A stretch of DNA of 63,564 bases, counting the filler. It is 7 parts of 7 records of this genome, joined end to end, with 100 filler letters (N's around TTAATTAATTAA, not from the genome) between each part and the next. Parts side by side here need not be neighbours in the genome. Positions count along the whole stretch, not along the records: positions 36,919 to 41,036 come from SRR7504441_390; 6 more parts are not named here. One strand, written 5' to 3'. The translations under genes and the position numbers were made by a program. Of the stretch, positions 2,441 to 62,851 are shown one piece after another (the first letter of the stretch is position 1; each line of letters starts with the position of its first letter). The notes under the pieces are model-generated. The model ran no database searches. It was not told where the DNA came from and worked only from the letters and a program-made list of their open reading frames with translations.

Positions 2441-2657
2441 TAAAAAATATAATGAATAAAGATACCAACACACGATTTAAGCCCTTAAGAAGAAAGCATG
2501 GAAACTAGCGACCGCATGCATACTCGTATAATACTCGTATACCCTGCTCCTCAGGCTCATCAAGACCAGCTCAAGGCCTGAGTGAGATCAACGTTCTCGT
2601 TGCCGCAGACTCGTGCCGCAGTGTGCCGTGCCAGGTGTCCGCTCGGATTGATGGTCA

Positions 2658-5600: not shown

Positions 5601-5984
5601 CTATATAGGTACAATCTAGATGAGCCATGCAATCCGTACGTGTTCACAAACCCGAGCAGCGATGAGAATCTGCTGGACGGCGACGCCGCCTTCTTCTTGG
5701 CGCCTCCAGGATTTAGTCTAGGGGCAGAGGAGGGAATGTCGGCCGATATCAACAGCTGCCTCCGTACGAATAAGACGATAAGAAGGAGTACTAGCGCCCC
5801 AAGCTTGACACAGGGACACGCTAGGACGACTTCTGGAAATTGGTCGAGGAGGAGGAGAGGGTCGCATTCGCAAGGACACGGCGCAGAAGTAACACCTCGA
5901 AAGGTCGACGTCGCGTACGCATCTGGACCTTCAATAACGCCGCCCACGGAGCCCATACCAGACTTTAAGCTCGATCTGGATTGA
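2658..5984 (+). CDS. Slo/BK-type K+ channel with tandem RCK domains, single exon
   Basis: 1108-aa ORF with six TM segments, S4 RFFRCVRIIRLHR, pore TITTVGYGD, and RCK motifs (HCVLVG, GHIVVLG, PLYAAGQV). Confidence 0.92.
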   Translation: MMELEVNPVREGEDRRPSPPRRPAEVEVELEGQGTHGSGSRGKGWNAPSPHTTPTLEPQPGRHDSKSSWNALTPDGPRSPVDMYTPPPPPAAEQSGVWPAGALQRQTSGVWPRGPVQSGGASGGGSGPRPGEVLLVDKPSGSFSLREQLAMMMEKTMAGRVVSLVSTILSILAVVLYVVASYFEESEEGEDEAPEWLQMIQLAFDVFFLLDYLFFLFIADDRLAHALRPATIADLLSVLPILRFVVDNASFDAFTIFRFFRCVRIIRLHRVTEFGAISELSQMHRQLLTLAFTTLCFLFVSAGLIHATDVLMGGGQYYGIPAGDLIQFHEAFYLLVVTITTVGYGDLSPSEDFSRSLMACIILAGIAILPRQVSRLHDTLRGYSKYFTTFRPHNATWKHCVLVGPPTQGGISAMTIRSLVKGFTFQDHGDIKMHVVVLSLFEPNQDTLQLLENPKYKTHLSYVKGHVMDSDGLDRCRAAEAQAFFVCVNKYDNVRLQHEEDTEAIMSTLAIKRFKSKMKVIVELNSEDSKNLLSAYHLLNVDIICIEELRNGLLAHSCAYPGISTMLMNFVQTHNTTVDSQDPLWLQQYLWGASQQLYEVDISCCKGLGFCMAVHLLMTHFKLMLITVQEKSTSQVWRNPGNLYIIAEGDTGFVLSHTRLDLKALSRAVLQAARGFEEECEQLRSQVARMRSRSMARVLTDSILEEFSPKNKPKTPQSKPIGDTNLPVQRQRVELSGHIVVLGSIVGSQSFIEPLRVKQSRSEDITKLRPIVIVSPESNEEEIRLALAPFSSVFHITGSSLDLQALENASVKTAERVVILRDSSLSQRWGLNQHTEVLREHQMQYIDAENVLCYRQILDTCAHRQDLPIIELIHMPNMRFLSMSALKCPHNFAYYRWPLYAAGQVVSTTTFDTLFTHVFLYPGMLEMFSTLAHKSRIPQSRQFQVHDSGFLCTLVPSSFYEVQFGAFFDYCLDEHEAICLGLYRYNLDEPCNPYVFTNPSSDENLLDGDAAFFLAPPGFSLGAEEGMSADINSCLRTNKTIRRSTSAPSLTQGHARTTSGNWSRRRRGSHSQGHGAEVTPRKVDVAYASGPSITPPTEPIPDFKLDLD

Positions 5985-6237: not shown

Positions 6238-9200
6238 TTAACTGATTTTGAAATATAGCCAGTTGAGCTTCATATTCATGATGGCATCGGTAAGCTCGAC
6301 CATCCTCTGCTTAGCGGCCTGCTGTAGCAGTCGCTGCAATACGTCCTCACCAATCTGTTTCTCTGCAACCGCTGTCCTGTGCCACTCGTCGATTCCACGA
6401 GCCATCTCTAGGTTCATCATTCTTGCTACACACCTGCCAAATACGCTCTGCTGCTTTCTGAGGCTTCTGCGAACGAATATCCAGTGGTTTAGACCTTTCA
6501 GCTTACCCAACTTACGCAGCTTATTTGCCCATCGCTTGGCTTCTGCTCTCTCCCCCTTTCGTAGTTGGGCATTGCTACCCCAACCCGCGAACCCCTGTCT
6601 CCTCTGCACATCTCCCATGACCGTTGCCACCCTCATTGCTGTTGCCTTGTCTCGCTTCAACTGTTGCGCGGTTTCAGACCAGTGTCGCATAGCGATACCT
6701 TTTGAAGCATTCCGGATCCTGAGAGCTACCTTGCGCATTACTGCTTTATTCTCAAGAACAGGCCCTGTTGACCGTTGCCACAGCAAAAAAGCCTGAAAGA
6801 TTGCCCTATTACGCATTCGACGCACAATCTGCTCACAAACTGCTTTGTGGTGCGTCATTTCGACAGAAAGTGCGCGCCATGAGTTCCATGCAGAGGCTTT
6901 GTTCCTGTTCCGAAGTCTTGAGAGCCCGCCCTTTGCTGTTGAGGAGATCTGCTTAAAAGAATCGGTGCATTGCATAAACCATGTCCATCCAGAGTTTAAG
7001 ATGCTGTTTGAGATCTTCAGCGCAACGCCCTTCATCTGCGTGCTCTGAGAAAGCATCTTTATGTGCATTGTCCGCCAGTGACGCAGGCTTCGAGCTTGCT
7101 GCCAATGCACCATTTGTATCAGGCCATGGATCATCTTTCCCTGAGCCATGCATAGCCATTGTGCTGTGTGGATCCATGTGTTGAACGCAACATTCAGTGA
7201 CGCAAGCCCCATGCGGTGGACAGCGTCTGCCATCCTGGCATGAGCATCTCGGGCTTCGGCACAGGTCTCACGCCATGCTGTGGTGGCTTGAGCAAGAGCG
7301 AGATACAGAATTCTCATACTGCAGTGTTTGATTTTGATTAGCGTTGCTCCATTTTCTGCTGACATGAGCAACCAGGTTTCCCAGCTCTGCATCAATGAAC
7401 GCCGAGTGAGCATCATCAATCCCTCGCGTAATCGGTTCTTATCGTGCAGAATTTGAGCCACAGCCTCTTGCCACCTGGCAAGCCCACGCATTGTATCTCC
7501 CATTTGCATCCGGGAAAGTGCTGTGCTGACGCTCTGTTTTCTGCGGGCGAATACAGCTGCTTCCTCGCGCCAGACATCTAAAGCTGTTGCGATCGAAAGC
7601 CGAAGCCAACGTTTGGCCACATGAAGCGCGTGCTGCGACCCTGTTGCAATCTCGCCGTACCATTCCTTCAATGTATTCCATGCACGGCGCTGGCCCATTT
7701 TGTCACCAAGGCCAGCAGCTTGAGCCAACATGGCTTTGGATCGACGGATGAGGCGACCATCAGCTTGCCACTGGATAAAGACACGGCTTGCTAGACCGCC
7801 GGTCATCCTATAGATGCCTTTTTTCATTGCAGTCGCCATTTGGTTCAGTTCTGCTGCTGCTTCTCGCCATGAGTTGATGCATCGTAGTTTCATCCGCGAT
7901 GCTTCGTCTAAGAAGCGTACAGCCAGTGCCCCGCGACGCTTCCTTGCCGAAACAGCTGAGTGTTTCCAGCCAAGGTAGACTTTAGACAACTTATTTCCTG
8001 ACAAAATCGAAGCAGCATACTTGGCTTTGTCATTGCACGTCTTCTCAGATGATGACTGTTGAAACCAGGTGTTCATGGCTTGAAGAATGCCTTGGCACCT
8101 AAAATAATGAATTGCACGACCAGCTTCGATCTTGACGCGCTTCAAGGTCGCTGCATTCACTCGCCAACACTCCATCATCATAGCAAACTTATTTTGAGTA
8201 AATCGATTAAACAATCCCCGGCTCATACGCCCACTCCTGCCTGTCCTTGATGTCTGCGCGTGCCAGAATGTCATCCCATGGACGAGATCCCTCTTGCGCA
8301 TCGCCAGAACAGCTGTACGCATTGTTTGGGTGACGTGTCTGAACTCTGATGTGTTCGCAACCAAAGTCAGCCAAGCAGTTACAAGACCTCTTTTCGTCAT
8401 CCGAGCAGCACCGCGTTTCATCGCTGCCGCCTGCCGATGCTGCTCGCTGGAGCTGTGCCACCATGTGTTGAGGGCAGTGCCCAGATCCTTATTTTTCAAT
8501 CTACTAGCTACCATTAGCATAGCTCGACTCTGGAGGCCATCACTTTGGGTACATTGCTCCCAGAGGAGCATTGCAGCCGAAAGCTTTGAGTTGAGCAACC
8601 TGGTCAGTACAAATTGCATATTCCTCTCCTGTTCTTTGAGTTCAAGTGCATTTGTAAGCCAACCTGTCATCGCCTTGCTAAGATCTTGGTTCATAGTCCT
8701 CACAATGGTCTTACGTAAGCGCTCTTGCATTAGCCGCAACTCTCCTGCAATTTCATACCAGAGCCCAAACGCTGCCGAGACCTCCCTATTGTACATCTGC
8801 TTCACAGCACGTACAGCAGCATTCTCGGCATTGACCCCATCGCAACTCTCTGCATGCCACTGCAAGAGAGCTTCCGAGACAGATTGATGAGCCATCTTCT
8901 GCAGCGCCTTGTTCACAACTTGCTTCTGGCGGGCTAGTCTGACAGACATGCTGTGCCATAATCGGAATGCAGCTGCCTTGAGTTGCAGTTTCTGGTCCCT
9001 AAGAATCGCTAAGCATCTACGACTAGAGGCCATCTGGGACACAGAGCTTGTGCGCCACAGCGTCCAAGCTGCCATGAATTTGCCTTTGGCCATGACAGTG
9101 AGAGATTTGCTTACCAGCGATTGCTCGTGGATCTGTAGTGCGACCATCTCCCTCCACACAAGGAGAGCCATAGACAGTGAGCGGAACATCAATCTCATCA

Positions 9201-12200
9201 CAGCATTCTTCAAATGAGCCATGCGATCTGTTTGACCCCGCATGTCTTCAGCCCAAGAGTTAAGAGCAGAAACAAGCTTGCATTGTTGCAATCTCATGAC
9301 AGCATGAGATGCACGTGAGAGCTGTTCTTTCATCTGAACAGCATTCGCCAGCCATGTGTTCAGAGCGCACAGAAGCTCGTGATTGAGCTGTCGCAGTATC
9401 ACACTCCGGAGCGTCTCCTGCTCATGGATTGTTGAGGTAGCATGAGCTGTCCATGTAGACCACGCTTGTGCTAATGAGCCATTGAGCATGCGTCGGCATG
9501 CTCGGCGTGCTGCAGTCTCAGCTCGCACTGCAATAGCCACATTGCAACGATATGTAGCAAATGCAGCGGCCAAAGAAGAGTTCATGAATTGCTTTGCTAC
9601 CTTCACCAGCCGATTATCCTCCCGAGTGCAGCCGCGAGTGTCATCATGCCAAGTCCTCCATGCTGCTGACAATTTAACATTTGCAAAGTGGCGCAATGTG
9701 ACTGCAAGCTTACGGAGTGATTGCTGCTCGTCTAAGGCTTGCCCACGCCATGTGTACATTGCTTGCGCTAGACATGTATTCTGAAGACGAATCACTGCAC
9801 GGCGGCCGGCGTCCAATGCATCACGTTGCTCGCTTGTGCTGACTTTCCAGCTTTGATATGCAACATGCATCTTTCGCTTCAGCATACATAAGACTGCATG
9901 GCGAAGGCGTGAAATGTCGTTCCCTGACTGGCTACTGGCTTGATACCAAGTCTGCATGGCTCCTGATAGTGCCCGGTTGTTCATTCGAGCGAGTACTGCT
10001 CCTATCTTTCTTAATGCTTCAGCTCCTTCCCACACAGTTGTTCGCCAGTGAGTGAAGGCAGCTGCAAGCTGAACAGCTTGCATGCGCCGCAAGACATGGC
10101 TGAGCTTCGCTACCTGAGCCTTATTTGTCTTGGCAAATTCACGCCAGGTTGCACAGGCTTTGAACATTGCGTGCTTCATCATTGACAAGATTCCTCGGCG
10201 AAGTTGATCTAACTCGGCGCTGCCCTGACAGGTGGCCTCCTTCCAGGTCATGTAGCCACTGTTCAACTGTGCGCGCATCATCTTCATGAGAGCCTTGCCC
10301 ATCACAACCTGCTGTCTGACCATTACGGCTGCTGTTTCTCTCCAGGCCGCCAGGCCCATCGACTGCTGCTGTCTCATCAACTTCATGACAGCCCGCCGCA
10401 GTTTGGCCATTTCCCCTGCAGCATCGGCAACCTGCAATTCCACACTCAGAAGCCTACATAGCATGAGGCTTACCAGATCATGCCATGCTGCCATTGCTCG
10501 TGAGAGGTCGGCCCTCGTCAGTCGGACCAGTGCAAAAAGAATGGCTTCCCGCTCATTTAGCCGCTCACGGACCGTGTGACGCCATGCTGCCAGTCCAGAC
10601 GCTAGTCGCTTATTGAATAAGCTGAGCAGAGACTTTCGCATTACTGCTTGTGCTTCACGTCCCTCGAGTGCAGTCTCTCGCCATGCATTCAGCACTTGCA
10701 GCCCAGCTCTATTCATCAACAGTATTAATCCCCTGCCGACCTTGACCTCCTGCGTCATGTCGTCGGCTATTGCCTCGCGCCACCGATTCACTGCACGAGC
10801 AACTGTTCTGCGCAGCAATTTTAGTAGTGCCCCCTTTAAAACCAAATTTGATATGGTCATGAGTCGCCACACCGACAGAGCAGCCGCGGACTTTACATTA
10901 AGCATTCGTAAAATGGCGCATTTCATGGCCTTCTTGGCTGCCTTGATCTCTTGTGCAGACTCATGCCAACTTGTCAGCATCTGAAAGAGCTGCCGTTGCA
11001 TCATCCTTCGCACAGCCTGCTTCATTTTCCAGAAAGCTGCATCGGCTTCGCCTGCCAACTCCCTCCAAGTTGCCCAAGCTTGCCAGGAGATGCTGTGCAT
11101 CATTGTCCTGACTGCCTTTGATGTAGCAGCCAGAGCTCTCCGCCCCGAGCAGCTCTCAGAATACCATGCTGTAAAGCTCTTGGCGAGCTGGCACCGCATG
11201 AACTTCATCCCTGCCTTATGCATCGAACCAAGCTCGTTTGTAGCTAGTTGCGTGTCCTCATACCATATGGAGAGAGCTACTGCGAGTTTCTGGTTTAGCC
11301 ATCGTCTGGCAGCAACAACAGTCTTGGCCTGTGCGTTGACGATGTCCGATGAGGTCTGATGCCACAGGGCCAGTGCGTTGCTCATGCTCTGCTTCATGAG
11401 CTTGATCACGGCCTTCTTCATTGTTTTGCTAGCTCGCCCCTCATTGCAGGTGACTGAATGAAGCAGGTGCCAGCCCATGGACAGGTCGCGGTTATACAGA
11501 TATTGTGCTGCAGCCTTTGCGCGCTTGAACATGGCGGCCTGAAAGTGCCATTTGACAAGCGATTGCCGTTTCTTCTTTCCTACGACATTCGAAATGCTGC
11601 GCTTCATTGTTAACCGAGCTCTCAATGCCCGGCGCTGCCGCATCTCCTTGGCGCCTACATTGCCAGAAGCATTCAGGTGTGAGTCCTCGAGTTTGGTTGG
11701 GCTGTCCAAGCCTTGAGTGTTGTAATCAAACCTAGAGCACAAGTCAGCCGCAGGCCGTGCAGCGACTGAGCACTTTGCATACAACGACTGGTCGTCCTCA
11801 TCCGCAGCTTCTGCCTTATAGGTCGAAACATCCAGCTCCTCCCACACCCATTGTTGCTGACAGCAGGCTCAGGCACGCGGCGGCAGTGGCTTCACCTTGA
11901 AAAATACGACAGAACGCCACATCCCGAAGCCAATCACCAGCTTCCACATCACCTGCACCGCAGTTGGACCCGCCAGCCTGGGGCTGTATGGACAGACAGC
12001 ATGCAGCCAGTATCGAGCAGCCAGCCCTGGAGTCTGGAGCGGGGGTGCGCACCAGGGTGCTGCTTATCAGGTCCAGCTTTCTGCGAACACGAGCTACGTT
12101 GGAGGTTGCTTTAGCCTTTTTGCGCCACCTGCCCGGCCGCTCGAGCTGCCGATCCGGGGCCGGCAGCACTTGATCAGCATTGTAGCGGCCGACATCATCC

Positions 12201-20872: not shown

Positions 20873-20972
20873 NNNNNNNNNNNNNNNNNNNNNNNNNNNN
20901 NNNNNNNNNNNNNNNNTTAATTAATTAANNNNNNNNNNNNNNNNNNNNNNNNNNNNNNNNNNNNNNNNNNNN
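20873..20972. other. Artificial assembly spacer N44-TTAATTAATTAA-N44
   Basis: The identical 100-nt cassette with stops in all six frames recurs six times. Confidence 0.98.
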
Positions 20973-25315: not shown

Positions 25316-25415
25316 NNNNNNNNNNNNNNNNNNNNNNNNNNNNNNNNNNNNNNNNNNNNTTAATTAATTAANNNNNNNNNNNNNNNNNNNNNNNNNNNNN
25401 NNNNNNNNNNNNNNN
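25316..25415. other. Artificial assembly spacer
   Basis: N44-TTAATTAATTAA-N44. Confidence 0.98.
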
Positions 25416-30686: not shown

Positions 30687-30786
30687 NNNNNNNNNNNNNN
30701 NNNNNNNNNNNNNNNNNNNNNNNNNNNNNNTTAATTAATTAANNNNNNNNNNNNNNNNNNNNNNNNNNNNNNNNNNNNNNNNNNNN
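30687..30786. other. Artificial assembly spacer
   Basis: N44-TTAATTAATTAA-N44. Confidence 0.98.
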
Positions 30787-36818: not shown

Positions 36819-36918
36819 NNNNNNNNNNNNNNNNNNNNNNNNNNNNNNNNNNNNNNNNNNNNTTAATTAATTAANNNNNNNNNNNNNNNNNNNNNNNNNN
36901 NNNNNNNNNNNNNNNNNN
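36819..36918. other. Artificial assembly spacer
   Basis: N44-TTAATTAATTAA-N44. Confidence 0.98.
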
Positions 36919-37147
36919 AACTTGCCCTCAGGAATGCCCCAGTCATTGGGTTTTTTAAGTCATAGGATAGTTTAAGTTGCGGTTAAGTTGCGGTACTCAA
37001 AAACGTCAAAATAATTAATTGATTACATGTGTACATGTAATGATTGTACAGTAATCATCGTACAAACCACAGACTGAAATTAATCATGATAATATTGTGC
37101 AACACAAAGATTATTGCAACAATTAACCTACAACTTTAATTCGAGCT

Positions 37148-38470
37148 CTATCTCGCGGTGTACCTTGATGAGCTGCTATTCGTTGCTACCACAGCAAGCT
37201 CATTGTTAATCGCCATGAGCTTCTGCTCCAATCGGATAGCAAGCATCTCCTCGAGCATGGCCTGACCGGCCATCACCATCACAAATGAAACATGACCATG
37301 CAGTATAGGTGAGCACACCTTGGCTGATTGCAAGTCGGGCTGGTCCGAGGTTGCTGGAAGCTCCTGCAGCTGTCAGTCAGCCGGGTCGGTTGGGTCCTAG
37401 GGCCAGGCTCGGGCACCGTGAGGGACGGATCGCTCAGCCTTTCACTGTTCCAGCTGCGCCGCATGGCCAGCCATGCCTGGGCCGGCTCAGCCGTGCGACC
37501 GGGCAGCAAGCCTGCTGGTCTGGCTCGACTGGCGACTTTGGTCCGCGCGCCACTAGTTCGCCTGCCGACAGAGTGATCCAGGATGCCGCCGATGCTCACG
37601 GTGCCGCCGGGCAACTTTCGGGTTAGGGTTAGGTTAGGGTTAGGCTCACGCTGCCGCCGGGCAACTTTGTCCTGCTCTGCAACACATTCGAGTGCGGCTG
37701 CCATCAGCTCGGCACTCTGCCCAGCCCGGCTGCCCCGGCTCAACTCGGCTCACGCGGTGCGGGCACCGCTGGTTGGGTTCGGTCGGCTCGCTAACGCGCT
37801 GGTTTGCTGCCTCGTACCTGCTCTTGGGTCAGTCGGCTCAGATGGCTGGCGTACGCAAGCAGCTGCCTCTCCATCTGGGCTACAGACCCGCTTGCCTGCT
37901 GCAGCTGCGCCCGGCTGGTCCCTGGCGGCACCGGCCGGACCTCTCTCTCGAGCTGCTCGGCTTCGTGCTCGATCCGCTGCTTGAGTTGTTCCAGAGAGCT
38001 GCGCTCGGTCAGTCAGCCGGCCTGCCGCTGGCCACCGGGAAGCGGCCGACCCGGCCGCCCGCGCCTCTGCGAGCACCACCTGCCCGCCCGGCTAGCTGTG
38101 CCGCCTCCCCAGTACGGCGCCTCCGGCCGCCGGACCGGCTCGCCGTGCGGCAGCTGTCTGCTCCCGGCTCGGGCCAGGCTGGCCGACGGCGCGCACCCCT
38201 TTGGGGAGAGAGGGGAGGACTTGGCGGCCACAGCTTGCCGCAGCACCTCGAGGATCTCGATCTGGGCCGCCTGAGCCTACCCTAACCCTAACCCTAGGAT
38301 CCGGGCCGCCTGCTCGGCCAGCGCCGCCTGTCCGAGCGAGCTGGCGTGCTCCAGCCGCTGCCCGCCCGCTCAGCCGTCGGCCCGGGCACCCAGCGCACAG
38401 CCTCGAGCTCGGCGACTTCGCCCGCCAGTGCGCGAGCCTCCTGGGAGAACTGGCGCTCCGCCGCGCTCAT
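37148..38470 (-). CDS. Intron-rich hypothetical coiled-coil protein (hosts the telomeric-repeat introns)
   Basis: Spliced model MSAAERQFSQEARALAGEVAELEA|RLEHASSLGQAALAEQ|AAQIEILEVLRQ ... DKVARRQ|RELVARG..|AWLAMRR..|LQELP..|AMLEEMLAIRLEQKL; middle exons less certain. Confidence 0.7.
37619..37643 (+). repeat. Interstitial telomeric repeat (TTAGGG)n flanked by 25-nt direct repeats
   Basis: cgggttagggttaggttagggttag lies between gctcacg(g/c)tgccgccgggcaacttt copies at 37594-37618 and 37644-37668. Confidence 0.92.
38274..38297 (-). repeat. Interstitial telomeric repeat (TTAGGG)n flanked by 15-nt direct repeats
   Basis: Plus-strand agcctaccctaaccctaaccctag lies between gatc(t/c)gggccgcctg copies at 38259-38273 and 38298-38312. 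Confidence 0.92.
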
Positions 38471-38538
38471 CGAGCCCGCATGACAGCCGGTGGCGCTCAG
38501 CGCGGGTGGTGCTTGACAGCTTCACACAGAACAAAAAG

Positions 38539-39327
38539 ATGCTGTCCGGGCACCACTCTGGGACTCCGGGGGGACTCGGGCTGTCGAGCATCACCCCGAG
38601 GACCAAGCAGTGCGGGCTGCAGGGGCCGGCCGATGAGCCCGGGCGGCAGGACTGCGGACGCGGACATCCAGGGCTGGGTCCGCCAGCTGGAGGCCGAGGC
38701 GGCCGAGCGGGTCTCCGAGCTCAGCCAGCCCCTACAGCGCGAGCTGGTCAGCCCGGCCGAGTGGGAGCACGCCAGCCAGTCGTACCGGCGGCTCGACCTG
38801 ACCGGCCGGGGCTCGGTCCCGGCCCAGAGGGTTGTCCAGGCGCTTGGGCGGCCTGTGGGTTCGGGGCCGGTGAGCGAGGCTGATTGGCACCGGTGGGTGC
38901 TCGAGCAGAAGCAGCGGCTGAGCGGTGGGCCGGGGCCGCTCGGTGGCCGAGACCGGACAGGCCCCCGGTTCGGCGAGCTGCTGCACCGGATTAGGGCGGC
39001 GGTGGACCAGTGGGCGGCCGACGGTGGGCCGGGCAGGGCCAACCGGCGCTGATAGACAGGCTTGCAGGCCAAGCGCGAGGCTATAGTGTGAGGACGGCCA
39101 GGGCTGTGGTGCTCAGGGCGGCCAAGGCGCTGCCGGGCCAGCTTGAATCCAATCCGCACTGCTCAGCCAGGCAAGCCGCGGCCGAGTGGACTGACGGACT
39201 CGTTAGGTTTGCGACCGACTTCCTTTGCCCGCGGCTGGCCCACATGATCGACAAGCTCCCCCGGGCGCACAATCTAGACCACCTCACTCCTGCACGCCGC
39301 CAAGTTAAAACCCGAAAGTGGTGGTAA
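38539..39327 (+). CDS. Hypothetical protein with a degenerate EF-hand; 3' end uncertain
   Basis: ATG follows an A-rich leader; a GT-AG intron joins to SYRRLDLTGRGSV..VSEADW (EF-hand-like). Confidence 0.45.
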
Positions 39328-39578
39328 TCCGGTTTTCATATTCACCGACCCTCCCATCGCGTTCTCATGACAGTACGCGTAAACGATCAGCACCTAACCA
39401 GCACCGGAATGCAGCCGATCGTTCGTCGATGCCATGTGTTGGCTCGGTCGGATCTACAACCCACGAGCTGCACCATCTACCGCCGTATCTGTTCACGCCC
39501 AGGCGACTGACACGGCAATCGCATCGCGCATGCTGACAATCTGTGCAGACGAGCACACAGACGCGGCGCTGAGAAATC

Positions 39579-41036
39579 ATGGCCAGTAGTGCTGTGCCGA
39601 AGGCAGCCCTAGCGAGGGGCATGTCCTCGCTGGTTGGCGTGAAGGGCCCAGGGGGTCGATCGTCGGTGAGCGGGATCCAGGCTGCGGTTTTTGGGGCCTC
39701 GGGCTTCCTGGGCAACTACGTGGTCAACGCTCTCGGTATGCCCGAGCCGACGGGGCGCACCGACCGCCGGGCGCAGGCCGCGGAGGATCGCAGGTGGTTT
39801 GCGCTCACCGGGGAGAGCCAGACGACGCGCGGCACCTCAAGGTGATCCGGGCCCCGCCGCTGGCTGAGCGGGCGGTGCTCAGGTGATGGGCGACCTCGGG
39901 CAGGTGCACATCCTGCCCTACCACCTCAAGGACGAGGCGTCGGTCCGCAGAGTCACCGAGGCGCCCGCCGACCTTCTGCCGCCGGCCGAGCTCTGGGGGT
40001 GGACAGGGCTGCAACGTAGTGATCAACCTGGTCGGGGCCCCGTGGGAGACTCGAAACTTCAGCTTCCAGGACGCGCATGTCGACGGCGCCGCCCTGATTG
40101 CCCAGTGACGCCCTTAGAGCCGCCCGCGACCGACCGATGCGGCGCAGGGCGGCGGCGGACGCCGGGGCGGATCGACTGATTCACGTGTCGCATCTGGCTC
40201 AGGCGCTGCCCTGGCGCGTGTCGCGTGTCAGTCTGACTGCGGCACCAGGGCTCAAACCCAGACTCTGGGTTTGCGACATCTAAAGCGGAGGGCGAGGCCA
40301 AGGTGAAGCAGATCTTCCCCGAGGCCACGATCCTCCGTCCAGCCACTTTGTTTGGCGAGGGCGATAGATTCTTCTCCAGGCACAGCTTGCGGCCGGCAGC
40401 TGCTGACTGGGCTTCAGTGCCGCGGCGCTGGGCAAGCTGCTGCCACTGTTTCCGCTGGTGGAGGGTGGCACCACCAAGCGATCCCCAGTCTGGGTGAACG
40501 ACGTGGCCTCGGTACGCCTCGTGCCGCTCTGTGCCTGAGCCTGGTATTCAGGCCGTCCTCAACTGCTTGCACGACCCGGACACAGCCGGCAACACATTCG
40601 AGCTGCAGGGCCCGCAGGCCTTCACCTTGGAACAGGTGCCGCCCGAGCGCCGGGCTGGCTCTGAGTGCTGCAGCTTTACACCCAGCTTTTCGATCAGATC
40701 AATGTCTCCACCACATTCGTGCACATGCCGCTACAGGCACTTGCACCTTGCCTGCGTCGGCTGAGCTGTGCGGCCCCAGATCGCCAAGCTGAACGCGACA
40801 GTCTTCGAGAACGCGCCCATCCTCGGCCGGTCGGCTGTGCTGGTCAAGGTTTGGTCCGGGCGCGGGCAAGCTGAGTTTGGGACAGGACGACGTGCTGCTG
40901 GCGGCTGTGGACGAACTAGGCTCGGACGGGGCGCTCGGGTTTTCTGAGCTCGGGATCGAGCCAGAGTCCCTAGACATTGTGCTCGGAAAGGTCTGCCTGC
41001 TGACCGCCGGGCGAGGATTGATGTGCTGCTGTGCAG
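39579..41036 (+). CDS. NDUFA9: NADH:ubiquinone oxidoreductase 39-kDa subunit (11 introns, 4 GC-AG; 3' end lost in gap)
   Basis: [97 protein letters not shown]. Confidence 0.95.
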
Positions 41037-41136
41037 NNNNNNNNNNNNNNNNNNNNNNNNNNNNNNNNNNNNNNNNNNNNTTAATTAATTAANNNNNNNN
41101 NNNNNNNNNNNNNNNNNNNNNNNNNNNNNNNNNNNN
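41037..41136. other. Artificial assembly spacer
   Basis: N44-TTAATTAATTAA-N44. Confidence 0.98.
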
Positions 41137-45304: not shown

Positions 45305-46402
45305 CTAGGCAGCTCTAGCTAAGTACTCGTACTGTAGACGATGGGCCCATTTAGCTGGATCCCATGCAGCCTTGAGTTCGCTTGGTTTCGAATCGTCCAT
45401 GCGTGCCTCATACGCCAAAGCCACGTGAGAAGCACAAACGCTTGTGCCGTCCCGAGTGAACTCAAATACACCAATCGCGTATCTAGCCCGTGGCCAATTG
45501 CCTAGATCGCCGCCAGTCTTCAAATTTCCGGGCGCAGCGGTTAGTTGAGGGGAGTCTGGATTGTTGTACTCCGGCCAGATCAGCCAAACATGACCGGCGT
45601 ATGTGTGTTCGCATTCGGCCCATTGCTCTCCTGGCAGAATGGTGTGGCCATACTGTATACAATCCCCATCCGAGTCGATCCAGAAAACCAGAAATGGTTC
45701 CTCGGTGTCGTTCAGAATGCACACATCACGCACTTTCGTCCATTCACCACTCTTGGACGAATCGGCGTCGGGACCGCAGCTTAGCCATCCATCCTGCACT
45801 GGCAGCGCGAGCTCTAGCAGCGTGTCCCCGGTCTGCAGCCCGTTCTCCCGCACTGTTGCCCCCAGCTTGACCCGGCGGGGCCCGACCTGCCACAACCCGG
45901 TTGCCCGGAGGTCCAGAGTGCGCAGCAGGCAGTCAGCCACGCGCTCCTGCGGCCAAACGTCCACCCAGATCAAACGGTCGCCAGGCTTCGCCGGGCTGGG
46001 CACGGCATCCGGCACCGGCCGGTCCTGAGATAGGGAGGCGTGGACCTGGATGGCGGCGTCCGGATCCCATCTGGCCTCGATTGTGGCCCCATCCATCACG
46101 CCGTGCTGGCTCAAGCTGTGCTCGTTGGGCAGCTCCACCCCGGAGAAGCTCAGCGAGAGCGCACAAGGGGGTGGCACCAACCCCCAGTCGGCCGGCGGGG
46201 ACTCGTACAGCCTGACCTTTAGCTGGGCCACCGGCTCGGACGGCCACGCCTGACGCTCGGCCCGCTGGTTGCCGGGCGAGAGCAGCAGCACTGGGATGCT
46301 GGGCTCACCGTCGGGTGGCACCGCCTTAGCGGCAGGGCTCAGCCCGTATGGGTTGTCCGGGGGCAGCGGCTCGGCCATCGATTTGGTCGGGCCACACCCC
46401 AT
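45305..46402 (-). CDS. Acylated protein with ubiquitin-like domain(s) and a VHL beta-domain
   Basis: MGCG start; VAQLKVRL..LSFSGVELPNEHSLSQHGVMDGATI (Ubl); a second weaker Ubl; NDTEEPFLVFWIDSDG..YGHTILPG..HTYAGHVWL (VHL-beta). Confidence 0.8.
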   Translation of the reverse strand: MGCGPTKSMAEPLPPDNPYGLSPAAKAVPPDGEPSIPVLLLSPGNQRAERQAWPSEPVAQLKVRLYESPPADWGLVPPPCALSLSFSGVELPNEHSLSQHGVMDGATIEARWDPDAAIQVHASLSQDRPVPDAVPSPAKPGDRLIWVDVWPQERVADCLLRTLDLRATGLWQVGPRRVKLGATVRENGLQTGDTLLELALPVQDGWLSCGPDADSSKSGEWTKVRDVCILNDTEEPFLVFWIDSDGDCIQYGHTILPGEQWAECEHTYAGHVWLIWPEYNNPDSPQLTAAPGNLKTGGDLGNWPRARYAIGVFEFTRDGTSVCASHVALAYEARMDDSKPSELKAAWDPAKWAHRLQYEYLARAA

Positions 46403-46513
46403 TTAGCTGACGTCTTATACCCTGGGCGCCCCTGGGCGTCCGGCCACCAGTGTAGGAACCACGGGGCTGCGGTGCCAGCTTTGAGGATTCGGTTGAGTAT
46501 TTTCTGGCAAGCG

Positions 46514-49500
46514 ATGGCGGCGAGGCCAGTGTTTTGGGTGGCACTCGTCGGCGGCCTGGCGGCCTGGGTGGCCGGGACCGACGAGAGCTCGCCGGTGCTA
46601 CTGATGCCCAGGCTGCCCGGGCCGGACCTCCCTGCCTCGGGGCTCGGCGACCCGGCCCCTGTCGCGCCGGACAACCACGACCAGTGCCGATCGTTGCTCT
46701 CGCTCTGGCGGGCGAGCCACCCGGACTTCCGGCAGTACCAGCACGCCAAGGCCGCGCTCGAGAAGACCAGTCAGCTCGTGAGCGGCTCGCCGGACCCGGC
46801 CAAGGGGTTCGGCCGGCTGGAAGTCCTCTATCGGGGGGTTCGTGGGGTGGCCGCCCGGTGGAAGGACTCGCCGGCGGGCCAAGTGTACGCCAAGGCGTCC
46901 GACGAGTGCGATGACGGCGGCGAGGTGCGCTTCGACGTGTTCAAGCCCCCGGCGCGCGACCAGGTCGCCGTGCAGGCCGCGGCCAAGAGGGCCAAGTGCG
47001 ACGGTATGGCCTCCGACCTCCGAGCCAAACTGGACCGGGTTCTGGTGCTGGTGCGCGAGGGGGTCCGGCAAGCCCAGGACGACCGCAAGGCGGCCTCCGA
47101 CGCGCTCACTGGGCTTCGGGCCGAGTGGCGGGCCACGAGGACCTCGCTGCTCCGATCGCGCTCCATCGACAGGCTCGAGCGGAAGGTGGGCAAGCTCAGG
47201 CGGCAAGCCGACGAGCTGGAGGCCGACGGGGACGGGAAGAGTCGGCAGCTGGCCGGGTTCGTCCGGGAGGAGCTCGAGTGGCGCCAGAGGGAGGTGGATG
47301 AGAACAAACTCGAGCTGGCCAGCCTGCGCCAAGTAGAACAGGCGAGCCAGCGCAGGAGGGAGCTTGCCGAGACCGACGTGGATCGACGGGCAGCGCTCAA
47401 CACGAGCGTGCTGACGGCGACGCGCCAGGCGGCCGGCAAGTTGCGGGTGCTCGAGCGGATGGCGGCGAACAAGGGCGGAATGAACCAGATGGAGCGGGCG
47501 CAAGCTGCCGAGCTGTTGGAACAAGTCCAGGCCACCCGACTGGAGACCTGGCGCAGCTTCAAGACGCGCGAGGCCAAGCGGCTCCGGGTGGACGCGCAAG
47601 CGAGGATTGGTGAGCTGGAGAGGAACGCAGAGGACACGGCAACCCTGGCTGCGCGCCGATCGGCTGCGGCAGAGGTCCTCGAGGGCTCCCAACAGGCGCT
47701 CCGAGCGCAGCTGAGCACGCTGGTGGCGGGGACCGAGCGGCAGGCGGTGGCGGCCCGTCTGGCTAAGCTGAGCACGCGGGTGAGTCGCTGGGCCGGGGCT
47801 GGCGGCTGAGTCAGGCGGCAGGTACTGCACGCTCATCGTGCGACAAAGCAAGCACTCGGCTGGCAGCTTCAGATGCAGCAGCAGCTGCAGCAGGCTAGGG
47901 AACAACTGGCCGAGCACACCGAGGAGAAGCTGGATTCGGCTGCCAGGCTGCCCGCAGTGCTGTCTGGACTCGAATCACTGGAGTCCGACCTGAAGCAAAA
48001 CGTCAGCCGTTACGGCGTGCTCGACAGCCAAAGGGCGCTCGAGGCGCTCGACCAAAGCAAGAAGCGGTTGAAGCGGCAGATGCGGCAGCGGGCCAGCATC
48101 GATCTCAGCCAACAGGTCTCGGAGGCTGTCGACGGTGTGCGGGAGCAGGCCCCTGAGCTGGCCGAGCTTGTGGCCGGACTAGAGGCCAAGTTGGGCCGGT
48201 TCGTGTGCGGCGAGCCCACCTACAACGAGTTGCTTGAGTCTGTGGCTGACGCTGGCCAGAGGATTGAGCCGCTGCTCGCCAACTTGCACTCAGCGCTGCT
48301 CACAAGAGAGACAAGCGCCCTCACAGCCGCCCGTGCCACCATCGCAGCCCAACGTCAGCGAGCCGCTGCCCGGACCAAAGCGACCGAGAGCGCCCGGGAG
48401 CAGCACAGGCTGGAGGCGGCGTACAGCAGCAGCACAGGCCAGGCCAGAGCAAGGAAGATCCGACGGCTCAACTTGGCCCGGAGGAGCGCTGTGAGTGCAA
48501 AGCTAGAGCTGGGCAGGGCGGAGGCCGCAGTGGTGGCCACTGAGGCGGCCGAGCACAGCGGGGCGCTCTGGCGGCAAGTCCGGAGTAAGTGCCAGATCCC
48601 GGAACACCTGGGTGCGTGGAATGCTTGCTGCAGCAGCATGGCAGACGTGTGGCAGTGGCGGCTCCCAGGGTTTAGCGCAGTGGCGAACGCCGAGGCGCTG
48701 GTCAATGCGGCGCAAGGCGAGGCGGATCAGGAGGCCACTGAGGTGCTTACCCAGCGGCTGGACAAGATACGTGCGGGCTGGGAGGCCTCGGGCGCAGGCA
48801 ATGCACTCGCACAGGTCACGGCAGAGTGCACCCGCCCGCGGCAGGAAGAGCACGAAGCCCACCAGAACGCCAAACGGCGAGTGGCCGATGCCAAGCTGCA
48901 GCTTAGAGACGCCAAGGCAGCAGAAGAGGCAGCGCAGCAAGACTATGACGCTGCGTTGAAAGCTCTGAGTGCTGATCGTCAGTCGCTGAGAGATGTGGAG
49001 GCGGAGACTGGAGTGCTCTTCGCGACGGAATCGCCTACCCAAGCTCCGACTAGCTCTGCTAACGCTTCACTGGGCAACCAGACCACTGCTTCTGCTGATG
49101 TCAACACAACAAGCGCTACAGTTATTGACGCCACTCTAGGAGAAACGGAGAGGCAACGCCCAGCGGTAGTGATACAGTGGGGGCACATGGTGCAAGCTGC
49201 CAAGCAGCGAGCAAAGGCGGCCCACGGGGCTCTTGACACAGCCCAGTACAAGCGGCGAGTGGCTCAAGAGGAGACTTTGACGGCCATGTCATTTCTCCGC
49301 GCGGCCCGCAAAGCTACAGAGTGGCTCAAACATGCAGACAACGCCAAGTTCGCCCTGGAGCAGGTCAAGGGAACCACGTTGGACCCACGAAAGAGGACAT
49401 TGATTGGAGAGCAGTTGGAGGAACTCAAGGAGCAACAGTTTGTGGTGGAGGAATCTCGGACCAATGCAGACCTGGGGCACACTGGCTCGAGCAACGGCTT

Positions 49501-52465
49501 GTCCCGGAGTGGGCTGATCAGCCACTACGTTGCCGAGTTCCAGGCAGAGCAGACTGCCACACACATCCGCAATATGATCAATGATCTGACTGAAGCAAAG
49601 GCCAAGGCGGATACAGCCTTCCCAATGGACAGCGATCAGGTCGACAACATGCTGCAGCAGCTGCGGCTGGACCTCCAAAGCGTGCAAGAGAACAAGTTTG
49701 AGACACAAGCGGTCCTTGGCGAAAAGGTAAGAGCAGCCAAAGAGAGCGGAATGGCAAGTATGTCCAACAAGCAATTGCTGCTGACTACTCAGAAGCTTTT
49801 GGAGCAGCGGGCTAAGGCGATGCGGGACCTGATCAAGGGCACGAGCAACGCGACCAATGCAACCGGGCTCACACTGACTGCACGCATGCCTTGGCTTGAC
49901 GACAGTACAGCAAGCGTAGAAGAACGAGCTCGCGCGACTGAACGGCTTGCCAAGATCGACGATGAGCTGTTCCGAATTGCGAATCTGCAACGCACGCTCG
50001 CTCCAGCCGCAACCAAGATCATGGAAACACGGCAAGCCCTCTTTGAGCGACTTGATCAGCCAGCCACGAACACCATAAATGGTGCTACCAACAACACTGC
50101 AAACGATACAGCAGGTGTTCTTTCGACAGGTTCCAACCTTGGCGAGGCAATCGGTGCTAAGCAAGCTGGTCCACTCCATCGCCAAGTGAGCAATGCAGCA
50201 TCCATGGCCACCGCAGTGCTCAGCAGGCTGCAGCAAGAACTGCCACGGCTACAGAAGGCATTTGATAATGCCAAGACACACTTCCAGAAGAATCGTGCGG
50301 GGAAAGACCTGCAGGAGCTCAGAACTAAGATTCAAGAGATGGAGGCAAAGACTACAGCCATCGAAAGCCACAGGCAAGTGCTCGAAACTGCCGATAAGGA
50401 AGACACTGTAGTGAGAAAAGGGCTTGCCCTTAAAAAGGAGCTGACTCACTTGAAGCAGCAGCTGACAATCAGTGCCATGTTCATGGCTGGTAGGAGCAAG
50501 GCAAGCGACACAGGAACTTTGGGAGTGTTGAACGCCTCCGGTGTTAGCCTCAGGCTGAACTCTTTGGCGCGAGCGCAGGCAAACCAAAGGTCTCGTGATG
50601 CCAAGCTGACAGCAGCAAGGATGAATACACTTCTTGTCGCTGTGCAGCACTCTTTAGCCACAATGCCTCTGATTCCCAAAATGCGAGTGGCTGCACAGGG
50701 CACTCTACGGCGAACCACCGTCAAGTGCAAGGTGCTGCGTGCCAGGATCGCCAAGCTGAAATCACAGAAGCAACCTGAAGCTGGCTCAGCTGTTGCCAAG
50801 GCACTGGAGCAGAAGCTGTCAAGATGGCATCGTCAGCTCGTGAAGCAGGAGGAGCTAAAGCAGGCAGCTAAAGATGCGATTGAGAGCAACGAGCGCGCAC
50901 TGCAGGAGCATGCGCGGGTGCAGCGAGACGACGGGAGCGGCTGTGCCAAGCTGGAGGATGAGGGGTTGCGCAACCAATGCAAGTCACTCCAAAAGCAGGC
51001 AGAGACTCAGTGCCACGCAGTACACCACGACGCATTCAAGGACTGCTGCTCCAGCCTGGTGTTGGGCTGGGAGTGGGGCAGGTCCAAATATCAGGCCTAT
51101 CAGGCTATGATGCTCCAGACGGACCCAGAACCCTACTGGGCCAATCCGCGCTCTGTGGACGAGGACCGGGCCAACGTCATCAGGATGAACAACCAGCGCG
51201 ACCAGGAGAACCGGATCAAACTGCGCTGGCTCAACTCTGAGGAGCGAAAGGTGAGCCAGGCGGCGCTGGCACATTGTGAAACTCGAGCAACGAAGGACAC
51301 CGACAAGCTTGAAGCGCTTGAGAAGGCTGCAGTGGATGTGCACACACTAGCCGATCAGGACGAGCCGCTCTCCGAGCTTGTCGAAAACGCTGTCCCTACG
51401 GGGACAGCCGATGGCTCGGTGAACTTTGCCGCAGAGACTCAGGCCCAACTGCACCAACAGATAGATCAGTCGACAGAGGCACTCGATAGCGAGTTGGACG
51501 AGATCGCCCAGCAGCGCCGCGACAAGCTCGACCAGGAGGCTGCAGATGCCGCGTTTAACGAGACTAAACGGTTGCTTGAGGACGTTAACGAAATGAGCCG
51601 TCAAGGCTTCCCTGAGGAGTTCACCAATCTGGGCGCCAAGGAGATAGCCACGGATGACCCGAAAGAGCTGCTCCGACAGCGCAAGGCGGCATTTATACGA
51701 CAAAAGCGGGCGATGGTACTGGCACGCGAGATGAAACTTGCAAAGCAGAGCGAGGTGGAGACTGACGCGGTATGCGGCTGGTCGAGTCAAATGATTAAGA
51801 TTGGGTGCTCGCAGGTGGCCAAGAAATTGTTCACTATGAAGCAAGAGCCCCCTCCCGAGAAGCCACCACAAGAATCCACTCCGCCCGACTATGTGCCACA
51901 CGAGACCCAGCTGGCCTACCTGGAAGCCAAGCTGCACCGGTCATATGCTGCATTCCTCGAGCAGACGCGCAATGCTGCGCTCCAGCTCGAACGACTGGAC
52001 AAGGTGTGCCCTGGCTTTAGGGCTGCGCTGACCTGTTGCAACCAGGCGGCGAAAAGGCGGGTGGCCAAGATCCAAGGTGTCAGGGCTAAGCTGCAGCGCG
52101 AGTATGGCGTGCTGGAGAGGCTCAGTGAAGCTAGGCTCTCCGCCGTGAAGGTGAAAGCACTCGAGTTGACAGATCCGCTGCTGGCAATGCTGCACCACGT
52201 TGAGCAAGCAGAGGATGAAGCTGAGGCAACTGCCGAATCCCAGACCGAAGCACGGGAAAAGCTGAACACGCGGGTAAAGCGCAGTCAAGAGATGGTCGAA
52301 TTGGCAACTGGTGACCCGCCTGCGTTTGACGAGGCTGCTAAGCAAGCTGCGGTGCGCAACAAGAAACTTGCTGAAGTGATGAACAAGCTGAACCAAGCGG
52401 CCAACGGAGTGGTCACTGCCAACACCAAGGACGCTTTCAAGCGAGCTACTGATAGGATGGGTTGA
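46514..52465 (+). CDS. Very large secreted coiled-coil glycoprotein (about 1970 aa; one intron at 47780-47821)
   Basis: Signal peptide MAARPVFWVALVGGLAAWVAG; a 42-nt GT-AG intron joins two ORFs; heptad-rich sequence with NxS/T clusters. Confidence 0.8.
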
Positions 52466-52661: not shown

Positions 52662-52761
52662 NNNNNNNNNNNNNNNNNNNNNNNNNNNNNNNNNNNNNNN
52701 NNNNNTTAATTAATTAANNNNNNNNNNNNNNNNNNNNNNNNNNNNNNNNNNNNNNNNNNNN
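52662..52761. other. Artificial assembly spacer
   Basis: N44-TTAATTAATTAA-N44. Confidence 0.98.
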
Positions 52762-59228: not shown

Positions 59229-62200
59229 ATGCAGGCGTACCTCCATGGGTTGGGTTCCGCCATGCCCGGGTTCGTCGGGCCGCGGCTGATCGACAGACGC
59301 AGCATATCACCCGGCAGCCCGTCGCGATCGGTCAGCCCGATCCGCCGGACTGTGCTCAGCCCAGCCGACCCGCTCTACCGAGTGCCCGTGCTCGCCCGAG
59401 CCCCCAACCCGCACCTGCGGCCCCACGGGTTCGGTCCGGCGGTGCATGGCTCGCCAGCGGCGCGAGGGTCGCCGCTCAAGCTGGGGGCGCCCGGCGGGGC
59501 TGTTGGGCAGAGCGAGATATTGTCGTGCTCGGACGTGCTGGATGAGCTGGACGAGATCACCATGCGCTCGCCCGACATCCGACGGTCCGGCCTGGCGGGC
59601 GGGGCTCGGGGAGCGGCGGGGCAGCGAGCTGGCGCATGTTGCGGCGATGCACGAGCACAATCCGGTTGTGAAGAAGGGGACCGGCCAGCTGCGGCAGGTG
59701 CGCGAGAGCGTCACTGTGTGGAAGCAGAGCCTTGCGGCGCTGGTGAGCCGTTGCTGGTCGGGCCTGAGCTGCGAGGGCAGGGCGCCAAGAACCAGCAGCT
59801 GGAACAGAGGGTGCAACAGCAGGATGCTGAGGCGGGCGCCATGCGGGAGCAGCTCCAGGTCGAATCTCATTCGGGATGGGCAGCTCACGGCTGAGACAGG
59901 TGATGGACAGCGGGATCGAGGCGCTGCATACGGAGCTGGAGCAGGCCAGGGCAGCGGCGCAGGCCAAGGAGCAGGCCGAGGCCGGGCTGCAGTCGGCGGT
60001 CGACAGACTGAGGGCAGAGAATGCAGAGCTGCGAGGCTCGATGGAGGTGAAGCAGACCGACCTTCAGGCGCTCGACGAGAAGCTGAGGGCGATGGACCAG
60101 GGGGTGCAGACACTTAACACGCACCTCAAGAAGAAAAGCGGCGAGCTCGAAGAGTTGACTCTGATGCTTGAGTCCAGGGACAGCAGCATGCTCGAGCTGA
60201 GCCGTCAGATGGAAGCTCTGCACTCTGACCGTGAGCGTCTTGCAAGCGAGCAGAAGAAAACTGAGGCCGAGATGGCTGGGCTGTGCGAGCGATTAGAGGC
60301 GGCCGAGCTCCGTTCCGGTTCAGTGCAGGTGGAGCTGGATGCCAAGGACTCGGCATTGATCGACTTGGCGGAGGCGTTGAAGGAGAGAGAGGCGAGCAAT
60401 GCGAAGCTCGAAGAAGCTGTGCAGAAGCTCCTCGCCGAGAGCGCGGCTGGTGGCGAGGAGTCGGCTCGGGCCCGGCAGCAGCTTGAGGATACGAATCAAG
60501 CTGCTCAGCTGGTGGTAGCAGAGCTGAACGAGGAGCTGAGCAGCAAAGGCGAACTGATCCAGAGACAGGAGGAGACGATTGCTCAGCTCAAAGAGGAAGG
60601 GGAACGGCACAAACAGGAGAGAGAGAAGCTCGAGGCGGAGCACAGTGCACAGTGCGCCACGCTACAGGCCGAGCTGGACCAGCTGAGGCAGAAGCAGGAG
60701 CAGGCCGCTCAACAAGCCTCAGAGCTGGATGCTCACGACAAGGCCAAGGACGCGGCTGTGGCGGAGCTATCAGGGTCACTCAAGGAAAAGGAGGAGGCGA
60801 TCGAAGCGCTGAATGCTACAGTGCAGAAACTTAAGGTTGAGGCTGTGCAGCTTCAGGGAAGAATCGAGCTCAAGGAGTCGGAGATGATGAATCTAGAACG
60901 CAAGCTCTCTATAATGGACGACGGGATCGAGGGAATGAACGTGGAGCTGCAAGAGCGGAATACGCTACTGCAGGATGCGTCTCGGAATTCAAAGGAGAAA
61001 GAGGACAAGATTGTGGAGCTCAACACCAGATTACAGGAAATGACTGCAGAGAGTGTCAAGTTGTCAGGAACGGTAAAAGTTAAGGATGGCGAAATCGAAA
61101 CGCTACGGCAGAAGCTCGACTCGCACGATGAAGGCACCGACGCAATCAAAGCTGAGCTGAAAAAGAAGGACATCTTGCTGAAAGCAAGCGAGGAAGCAGT
61201 TCGACACTACAAGGCGGAGAATGCAGCTCAAGCAAGCGAGGTAGATGCACTGCAGGATCAGGTCATGGTGATGGACCAGGGGATAGAAGCTCTCAACAGC
61301 GACATGAAGAAGACTGACTCGACCGTCCAGGGACTGTGCGGCACTCTTGAAAAGAAGGACAACAACATCTCCTCCTTGAACTCATCGGTTCAAGCTCTGA
61401 GGACAACAATGGAAGTGAAGGAAAGCGAGCTAGAGATTGTCCGTGAGCAGCTTCGCGAAATGGAGGAATCTGTCGAGGCGCTCAATCTTCTTCTTCGCGA
61501 CAAGGGGGCGTCGAGAATGGGGAACGCAAGCATCACTGCAGAGCTCGGCTCGTCAGTGAAACGCGTCATTGCCGAGAAAAATGAGCTGATTGATATCGTG
61601 GAAGCCAGGGACTCGGAGGTGGAAATTCTCCAGGAGCAGCTGCAGGTGATGGACGAGGGCATCGAGGCAATCAACTCAGACTTGCTATCAAGCATGGGTG
61701 CTTGCGAAGATCTGGCTGATAAGCTGCATAAAAAGGAGAGAGAGCTAGACTCCAAGGACAATGAGATACGCCATTTGAAGCAACAGGCAATGTTGATGAA
61801 TGAAGGCAGCACTGTTCTCAATGGCGATGCACAACAGAGGGCCTCGGCCATGCAAGACATACAAGTATCTGGCTCGCTCAAGCAGAAGGAAGGTAGCTTG
61901 GCTGAGCTCAGTGAATCAGTGCAGCAACTCCAGGCGGATAAAGCCGTGCTCGAAGGGACTGTTGGTGCCAGGGAGGCCGAGTTGAAAACCATACAGCAGC
62001 AGCTCAAGACCATGGACCACGGGATGGAAGCCCTGAAAGCTAAGGAAGACAGTATATCTCAGCTCAAAGCATCCGTTGATAAGCTAACAGCTGAGAATGC
62101 CAAGATGTCCGAGGCTGATTGCGAGCTTGAGAAATTACGAGCCGAGCTGCGGATCGTGCAAGAGCGCGAGGCCAGCATGCTGGAGCGCGTCCAGCAGGAG

Positions 62201-62851
62201 ATGAACAACCTTACTCAAGAAATGACCACACAGCATGAGGAGAAAGAATTGCTCCTGGGCCAGCTCAAAACTAACAAGAGTGGCGAAGATGAGACCACCA
62301 AGGCGCTTGAAGATACACAAGAAAAGTTGAGCGCAGTGCAGGGAGCGCACAACATGATGCACGCTCGGGTGCTCCAGCTCGAGGAAGAATTGCTCCGGGT
62401 CAAGGGTACGGTAAGTGATAGGCCCCCTTCCTCAAACCGACCGCTAATCGACTACGAGAAAAAGGTGCAGTCAATGGACGAGAAGCTGCAGAGTGCGAGG
62501 AAACACGAGTTAGACTCGAAGAGTGCCGAGCTGAAGAGCCTGCACGATATTTCGATGCTCAAGGATCAGTTACGCAAGAGCGAGGAGGCGCGCCTGGAGC
62601 TCCTTCGACGGAATCAACCTCATCAGGAGCCCGATCCCTGCATTCGGGCAAGATTCGGATCGGCATCACCCGCAGTCACGCTGAGGTCCGCTTCACCTTT
62701 CAGATCTGCCTCGGGCCAAGAGAATAGAGCCTTTAGTAGATCTGCAGGTTTAGGTGTGGACTCAGGAATACCAGGAAGCGCAGGCCGTGGTTTCTTGCAG
62801 CGCTTATGTGAGCGAGGGGTACAGCGTGCGAGTGAGTACAGAAAGACCTGA
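59229..62851 (+). CDS. Long coiled-coil protein with internal repeats; short 5' introns, start approximate
   Basis: 991-aa terminal ORF of heptads with a recurring QLxVMDxGIEALN motif. Confidence 0.8.

Follow-up and report, generated by a model that had tools for sequence, protein, structure and literature searches.

A short telomere-type filler between two copies of a duplicated target, a real insertion of the kind known from mammalian break repair, is present on the minus strand of a marine metagenome contig at positions 38259-38312. Judged from its sequence, the insertion appears to interrupt the coding part of a gene that is small, lineage-specific and coiled-coil-like, and we lean towards the view that it serves there as a newborn intron of the GC-AG type. 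The same gene holds a second, similarly built insert at 37595-37668, giving two telomere-type fillers, each held between copies of a duplicated target of 15 or 24 nt.

The sequence derives from an uncultured marine eukaryote, as all public runs with which the region has words in common are samples of marine communities. Among the 23 such runs listed, which comprise community RNA or DNA, 19 hold a part of the region and the best share is 0.13. The window, by which we mean the whole stretch of DNA analysed, is 63,564 nt long and consists of seven contigs joined by six identical spacers (44 N, TTAATTAATTAA, 44 N) at 20873-20972, 25316-25415, 30687-30786, 36819-36918, 41037-41136 and 52662-52761. 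Genes that flank a spacer therefore need not be neighbours. The candidate intron lies on a contig of 4,118 nt (36919-41036). Other parts of the window show a mixed architecture and composition, with uninterrupted frames of 1,000-1,900 codons and about 50% G+C (2652-5984 (+), 6238-11868 (-), 47810-52465 (+) and 59831-62851 (+)) sharing contigs with genes of 65-70% G+C that are full of tiny introns. At 46223-52465 (+), two long open frames lie in the same frame with one stop between them at 47807-47809, and a predicted 42-nt GT-AG unit (47780-47821) would remove this stop, giving one protein of some 2,070 residues. A deoxyhypusine synthase was confirmed by an Atlas look-up, and a protein search had its top matches, at 89-93% identity, among unnamed proteins from marine catalogues and metagenomes.

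The candidate insert is made up of a duplicated exon segment and a degenerate telomere repeat. Read on the minus strand, the upstream copy of a 15-nt direct repeat (38298-38312) is followed by a 24-nt degenerate G-strand telomere-type tract (38274-38297) and by the downstream copy of the repeat (38259-38273). The two copies are identical at 14 of 15 positions (93%), the sole mismatch being G versus A at 38302/38263. From 38297 to 38274 the tract reads C, TAGGG, TTAGGG, TTAGGG, TAGG, CT, and TRF reports three copies of period 6 at 100% for 38279-38296. A CAG/GC junction (the slash marks the splice site) lies inside the upstream copy with its donor G at 38309, while the downstream copy supplies an acceptor CAG (38273-38271) and its remainder forms the start of predicted exon 3. 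The putative 39-nt GC-AG intron (38271-38309) would hence comprise 12 nt of the first repeat copy, the 24-nt tract and CAG, with CAG/GC at the donor side and CAG/G at the acceptor side. Excision of 38271-38309 leaves a single copy of the 15-mer and an open frame; in the unspliced unit, a TAG at 38279-38277 is in frame with the flanking codons. The initial annotation had described this repeat-filler-repeat anatomy, the origin of the AG/GC donor in the first copy and of the CAG acceptor in the second, and the dependence of the reading frame on removal of the 39 nt, and each of these points was borne out in the sequence.

Chance is excluded as the origin of the telomere-type tracts and their flanking repeats. 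With at most one mismatch allowed, the 12-mer (TTAGGG)2 has five matches in the 63.5-kb window, all within the two arrays, against 0.08 expected, and five matches were reached by none of 100 shuffles. Direct repeats of at least 14 nt with at most one mismatch and a spacing of 30-70 nt occur 14 times in the window compared with 0-2 times per block shuffle (n = 5 shuffles). The others are mostly repeats of coding or tandem type, and non-coding filler between the repeat copies is found at only the two telomere-type sites among the 14. One of the other repeats, a 17-nt repeat at 47709/47766, was considered as a similar intron and rejected as a coding repeat, and the window holds no further introns of the repeat-filler-repeat type. 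The donor and acceptor contexts of the candidate share 15 of 24 positions in register compared with 5-11 of 24 for 12 other introns (10 RNA-confirmed and 2 predicted), and the flanking repeat is therefore specific to the candidate unit. Growth of a microsatellite within an older intron was ruled out because the unit is made entirely of duplication and filler.

The second insert indicates that the insertion process recurs, as it is of the same build. It lies 650 bp from the first and in the opposite orientation, on the plus strand, where a repeat search identified the upstream (37595-37618) and downstream (37645-37668) copies of a 24-nt direct repeat that are identical at 23 of 24 positions. 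Between them is a 26-nt insert (37619-37644) consisting of a C and a degenerate G-strand telomere-type tract, recognised by sequence and by TRF. The resulting unit measures 50 nt, and AG/GY is absent from its repeat on the strand of the gene. Relative to the gene model, this insert is situated at or past the stop codon and is probably in the 3' untranslated part. An RNA contig of run X4, from an independent study, runs through it (37500-37770) with 5 letters fewer than the window and retains it unspliced. The presence of the second insert in this RNA contig shows that repeat-filler-repeat structures are real and that they are not removed when splice sites are lacking. The 5-letter shortfall suggests that tract length may vary between populations. 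The X4 contig ends 2 nt from the predicted acceptor of a 49-nt intron (37769-37817). An exact 24-mer adjoining the second site has no matches in JGI metagenome contigs. It is barely credible that the candidate is an assembly artefact produced by chimeric joining within a short contig of the metagenome. The contig on which it lies does measure 4,118 nt and belongs to a fragmented assembly, and the site is outside the cover of the four mapped runs, but a 15-nt duplication with one mismatch around a short tract is not expected of such an artefact, and an RNA contig from a different study runs through the sister structure at 37595-37668.

The candidate fits the local splicing rules because ten real introns in a neighbouring gene are 37-46 nt long and four of the ten have AG/GC donors. 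This intron-dense gene (39563-40991, plus strand) was used as the local splicing standard. RNA or DNA contigs of runs X1, X2, X4 and X6 were mapped on the contig 36919-41036, with 37885-39540 outside their cover, and introns of the neighbouring gene were defined as segments skipped by RNA contigs of X1, X2 and X4 (two studies), their ends being re-registered within the ambiguity that read mapping reports. The ten RNA-supported introns comprise six of the GT-AG and four of the GC-AG type, with AG preceding all four GC donors and CAG as the acceptor in nine of the ten, and joining the exons gives one open frame. With 39 nt, the candidate lies inside this size range, in agreement with its earlier description as being of the intron size typical of the genome, and its donor and acceptor classes (AG/GC and CAG) both occur among the confirmed local introns. 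By reading, a C-Y-G-A-S motif is found 11-18 nt upstream of the acceptor in all ten confirmed introns and also in three other predicted introns of the candidate's gene. The candidate itself possesses only GTTAG at the branch-like position, contributed by the telomere unit and with its A at -13.

The neighbouring gene is extreme in its intron density, with ten introns in 1.43 kb and exons of 55-173 nt. One of its exons gives a sub-threshold match to a Rossmann-type Pfam family, and by eye we take its protein to be like the 39-kDa subunit of complex I. In the confirmed 41-nt intron at 39842-39882 (+), the same 7 nt (AGGTGAT) lie across the donor and acceptor junctions, leaving 7 ambiguous letters in mapping, and this repeat may be a trace of an older duplication-born intron.

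The candidate would separate exons 2 and 3 of a small coiled-coil-like gene according to our gene model. Predicted exon 1 (38399-38470, minus strand as for all features of this gene) starts with the ATG at 38470 and is followed by a predicted 41-nt GT-AG intron (38358-38398) carrying the local branch-like motif, by predicted exon 2 (38310-38357) and, beyond the candidate, by predicted exon 3 (38221-38270). A predicted 222-nt GT-AG intron (37999-38220) would join exon 3 (phase 2) in frame to predicted exon 4 (37818-37998), which has 60 codons, is coiled-coil-like and precedes the predicted 49-nt intron. Coding potential was scored with a position-specific base model trained on the neighbouring gene. 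Exon 1 (38470-38399) scores +7.5 in the proposed frame and -16.6 and -9.5 in the other two, exon 2 (38357-38310) +4.3 compared with -8.1 and -8.2, and exon 3, over the 51 nt 38270-38220, +9.7 compared with -13.0 and -10.0, all in the proposed frame first. These scores are within the range of the true exons of the neighbouring gene. The 41-nt intron unit and the 39-nt candidate are flat or negative, and the proposed frame shows positive periodicity to either side of the candidate. The signal ends around 38220, being lost past 38219, and is back at 37998, with exon 4 scoring +6.7 in frame over 37999-37835.

Searches for relatives of this gene covered proteins, protein families and metagenome contigs. 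The exon-4 reading frame yielded 235 word-sharing candidates among longer proteins, none scored, and no matches in 1.84 billion representatives. Pfam returned no family at threshold for exon 4 or the candidate's gene, and a search for related loci in JGI metagenome contigs gave 595 pattern matches, of which 0 were confirmed. As the gene is without relatives in these searches, its coding status is argued from periodicity and open frames. These null results could also mean that the minus strand is non-coding, representing untranslated RNA or the reverse of an opposite-strand gene, and that the insert is a neutral interstitial telomeric sequence; in GC-rich DNA, long open frames indeed arise on either strand. 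We consider this improbable given that periodicity is positive in one sense frame over three consecutive short exons and exon 4 while antisense frames score lower, that the model starts at an ATG and that a 41-nt GT-AG unit with an exact local intron motif connects the frames. This 14-nt motif is found at 38362-38375 (-) and is the same as in the RNA-confirmed intron at 39862-39875 (+). When up to two mismatches are allowed, the window contains 11 occurrences where 1.77 are expected, and the motif, which lies near the 3' ends of these two introns, could represent either an extended branch-site consensus or a sign of kinship among the tiny introns. Just upstream of the gene's ATG, on the opposite strand, a protein-like open frame at 38681-39052 (+) has a coding periodicity of +8.5 and no Pfam family; it may be a divergently transcribed gene.

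A real insertion that stays unspliced is a possible, if somewhat unlikely, explanation of the candidate. It would then represent a truncating (null) allele, a dispensable orphan gene that has recently become a pseudogene, or a single haplotype picked up in assembling the metagenome, and the duplicated CAGGC would have given rise to the intron-like ends as a by-product. By a rough estimate, about one in seven random 15-mers of like composition holds AGGY. The putative splice junction is outside the cover of the RNA or DNA contigs of X1, X2, X4 and X6, the homologue searches give no sign of selection on the gene, and the canonical branch-like motif is absent from the unit. In addition, a crude dynamic-programming gene model, which was weak and set an arbitrary penalty on introns, let the frame stop at the in-frame TAG and did not splice the candidate. 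Against this, the size, donor class and acceptor of the unit match the ten confirmed introns, open frames and coding periodicity are kept in exons 3 and 4 beyond the TAG at 38279-38277, and the 3' part of the locus is transcribed as evidenced by the RNA contig.

Break repair with telomere-type extension of a DNA end would account for the anatomy of the candidate. A break with a 15-nt stagger would have occurred in the coding region and then been repaired, with one 3' end gaining about four TTAGGG-type units added by telomerase or by another reverse transcriptase copying a telomere-repeat template. Fill-in of the overhangs and end joining would leave a 15-mer on each side of the filler. Because the duplicated 15-mer happens to contain CAG/GC, a donor and an acceptor would flank the repair product, yielding a 39-nt unit that starts with AG/GC and ends with CAG/G. 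This unit would most likely be removed as a newborn GC-AG intron, restoring the original mRNA. The second site could have followed the same route through an independent staggered break, 3' end extension, fill-in and joining.

The two inserts also share features that plain telomerase fill-in does not predict. At both, a single C separates the upstream repeat copy from the tract, and over the 11 bases that follow the tract the two sites agree at 9 (P ~5e-4 relative to random pairs from the same contig, in one post hoc comparison). Both inserts fall within a single gene of 1.5 kb, the remaining 62 kb of the window being free of them, which suggests a local hotspot or linked events. The inserts together form a 32-nt inverted repeat with 81% identity (37624-37655 and 38265-38296) that extends past the tracts into the flanks. 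The shared junction bases could be the result of telomerase template read-through, of the kind of endonuclease or microhomology preference that accompanies target-primed reverse transcription, or of patchy gene conversion between the two inverted tracts.

These features raise the question of whether the filler came from telomerase acting at a random break. It could instead have been placed by target-primed reverse transcription, with a retroelement enzyme acting on telomere-repeat RNA, or represent a tiny mobile unit or captured telomeric DNA. We regard such an origin as unlikely, though worth serious consideration; the anatomy and the possible intron would stand under it, and an endonuclease preference or microhomology would account for the shared C and post-tract bases. 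Long, variable-length target duplications are typical of target-primed reverse transcription by LINE-type elements, and those observed here are both long and variable in length (15 and 24 nt). The clustering of both inserts in a single gene points in the same direction. Conversely, the tracts of the two inserts differ in unit number and in defects, so that neither is a copy of the other or of a common element. Terminal inverted repeats and poly(A) are absent, the window holds no further family members, and the shared flank could also be explained by short gene conversion between the inverted tracts. Rfam finds no family in the window and hence no telomerase RNA there.

Similar insertions are known from mammals as a product of double-strand-break repair. 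Short interstitial telomeric sequences were inserted in this way in primates and rodents, and target duplication is listed for 6 of 130 rodent and 4 of 25 primate loci in Table 1 of that study, the available part of which implicates telomerase through in-register microhomology and gives telomeric fragment capture as an alternative (Nergadze et al., 2007; PMC2246262). The inserts described here resemble these loci in having few, degenerate TTAGGG-type units that would have been acquired in one step at a break, in the target duplication, present in a minority of the mammalian cases, and in the proposed role of telomerase. The mammalian loci were defined by comparison with empty orthologous sites according to the same text, whereas here the empty site is deduced by collapsing the duplication; no insert-free or related locus was found in JGI metagenome contigs. 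In-register microhomology is given there for about 75% of loci, compared with 2 nt (TT, then C) at the second site and none at the first. Target duplication is present at both inserts here, with 14 of 15 and 23 of 24 positions identical, and the accessible portion of the mammalian study contains no reports of such loci as introns.

Intron gain through break repair is an accepted proposal with few clean cases. A review describes intron gain in break repair with filler and flanking direct repeats, counts five unambiguous events and names mitochondrial DNA as filler, its main text making no mention of telomeres (PMC3443670). The candidate shares with these cases a proposed staggered break, a filler, direct repeats at the intron ends and putative splice sites that would leave the mRNA unchanged, but differs in that its filler is recognisable as a telomere repeat and in that the whole candidate intron consists of repeat and filler. 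It likewise resembles the tandem duplication of AGGT-containing exon segments (PMC3443670), in which a duplicated AG/GY provides donor and acceptor and allows exact removal. A pure tandem-duplication intron was ruled out, however, as foreign filler makes up 24 of the 39 nt.

Introners represent the closest transposon-based parallel. They are transposon-derived introns that obtain splice sites from target-site duplications and are common in marine protists, and in a Florenciella family both splice sites are taken from the insertion site, as described in the part of the study available (Gozashti et al., 2022; PMC9860276). The target duplication of the candidate would provide its splice sites in the same manner. 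According to that text, introners are multi-copy, have duplications of 3-9 bp and often possess terminal inverted repeats. In contrast, the two fillers in the window are non-identical simple repeats that lack inverted termini and are flanked by duplications of 15 and 24 nt. Two inserts of differing unit number in 63.5 kb do not constitute a multi-copy family, and neither inverted termini nor a short duplication of fixed length is seen. No account of an intron derived from the insertion of telomere repeats came up in a search of the full-text literature.

The origin of new spliceosomal introns is a long-standing question, and break repair with filler is one of the proposed routes. The initial annotation went further in speaking of an intron-generating system, a description that goes beyond a single candidate intron and a second insert that is no intron. 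Recurrent telomere-repeat healing of broken genes as a transposon-free source of introns in this intron-dense marine protist lineage is a speculative extension that we think improbable. It is equally doubtful, as part of the same idea, that the spliceosome in this lineage takes almost any unit of about 40 nt with AG/GY...AG ends, and there is only a slim chance that the process contributed to its extreme gene architecture, in which each 100 nt of coding sequence carries about one 40-nt intron. All nucleotides in the candidate can be assigned, 15 nt to the target duplication and 24 nt to a filler with a recognisable source. If splicing is confirmed, the candidate would be an unusually clean case of an intron caught at birth that links telomerase-type break healing to intron gain, and the order of repeat, telomere filler and repeat would provide a search pattern for any genome.
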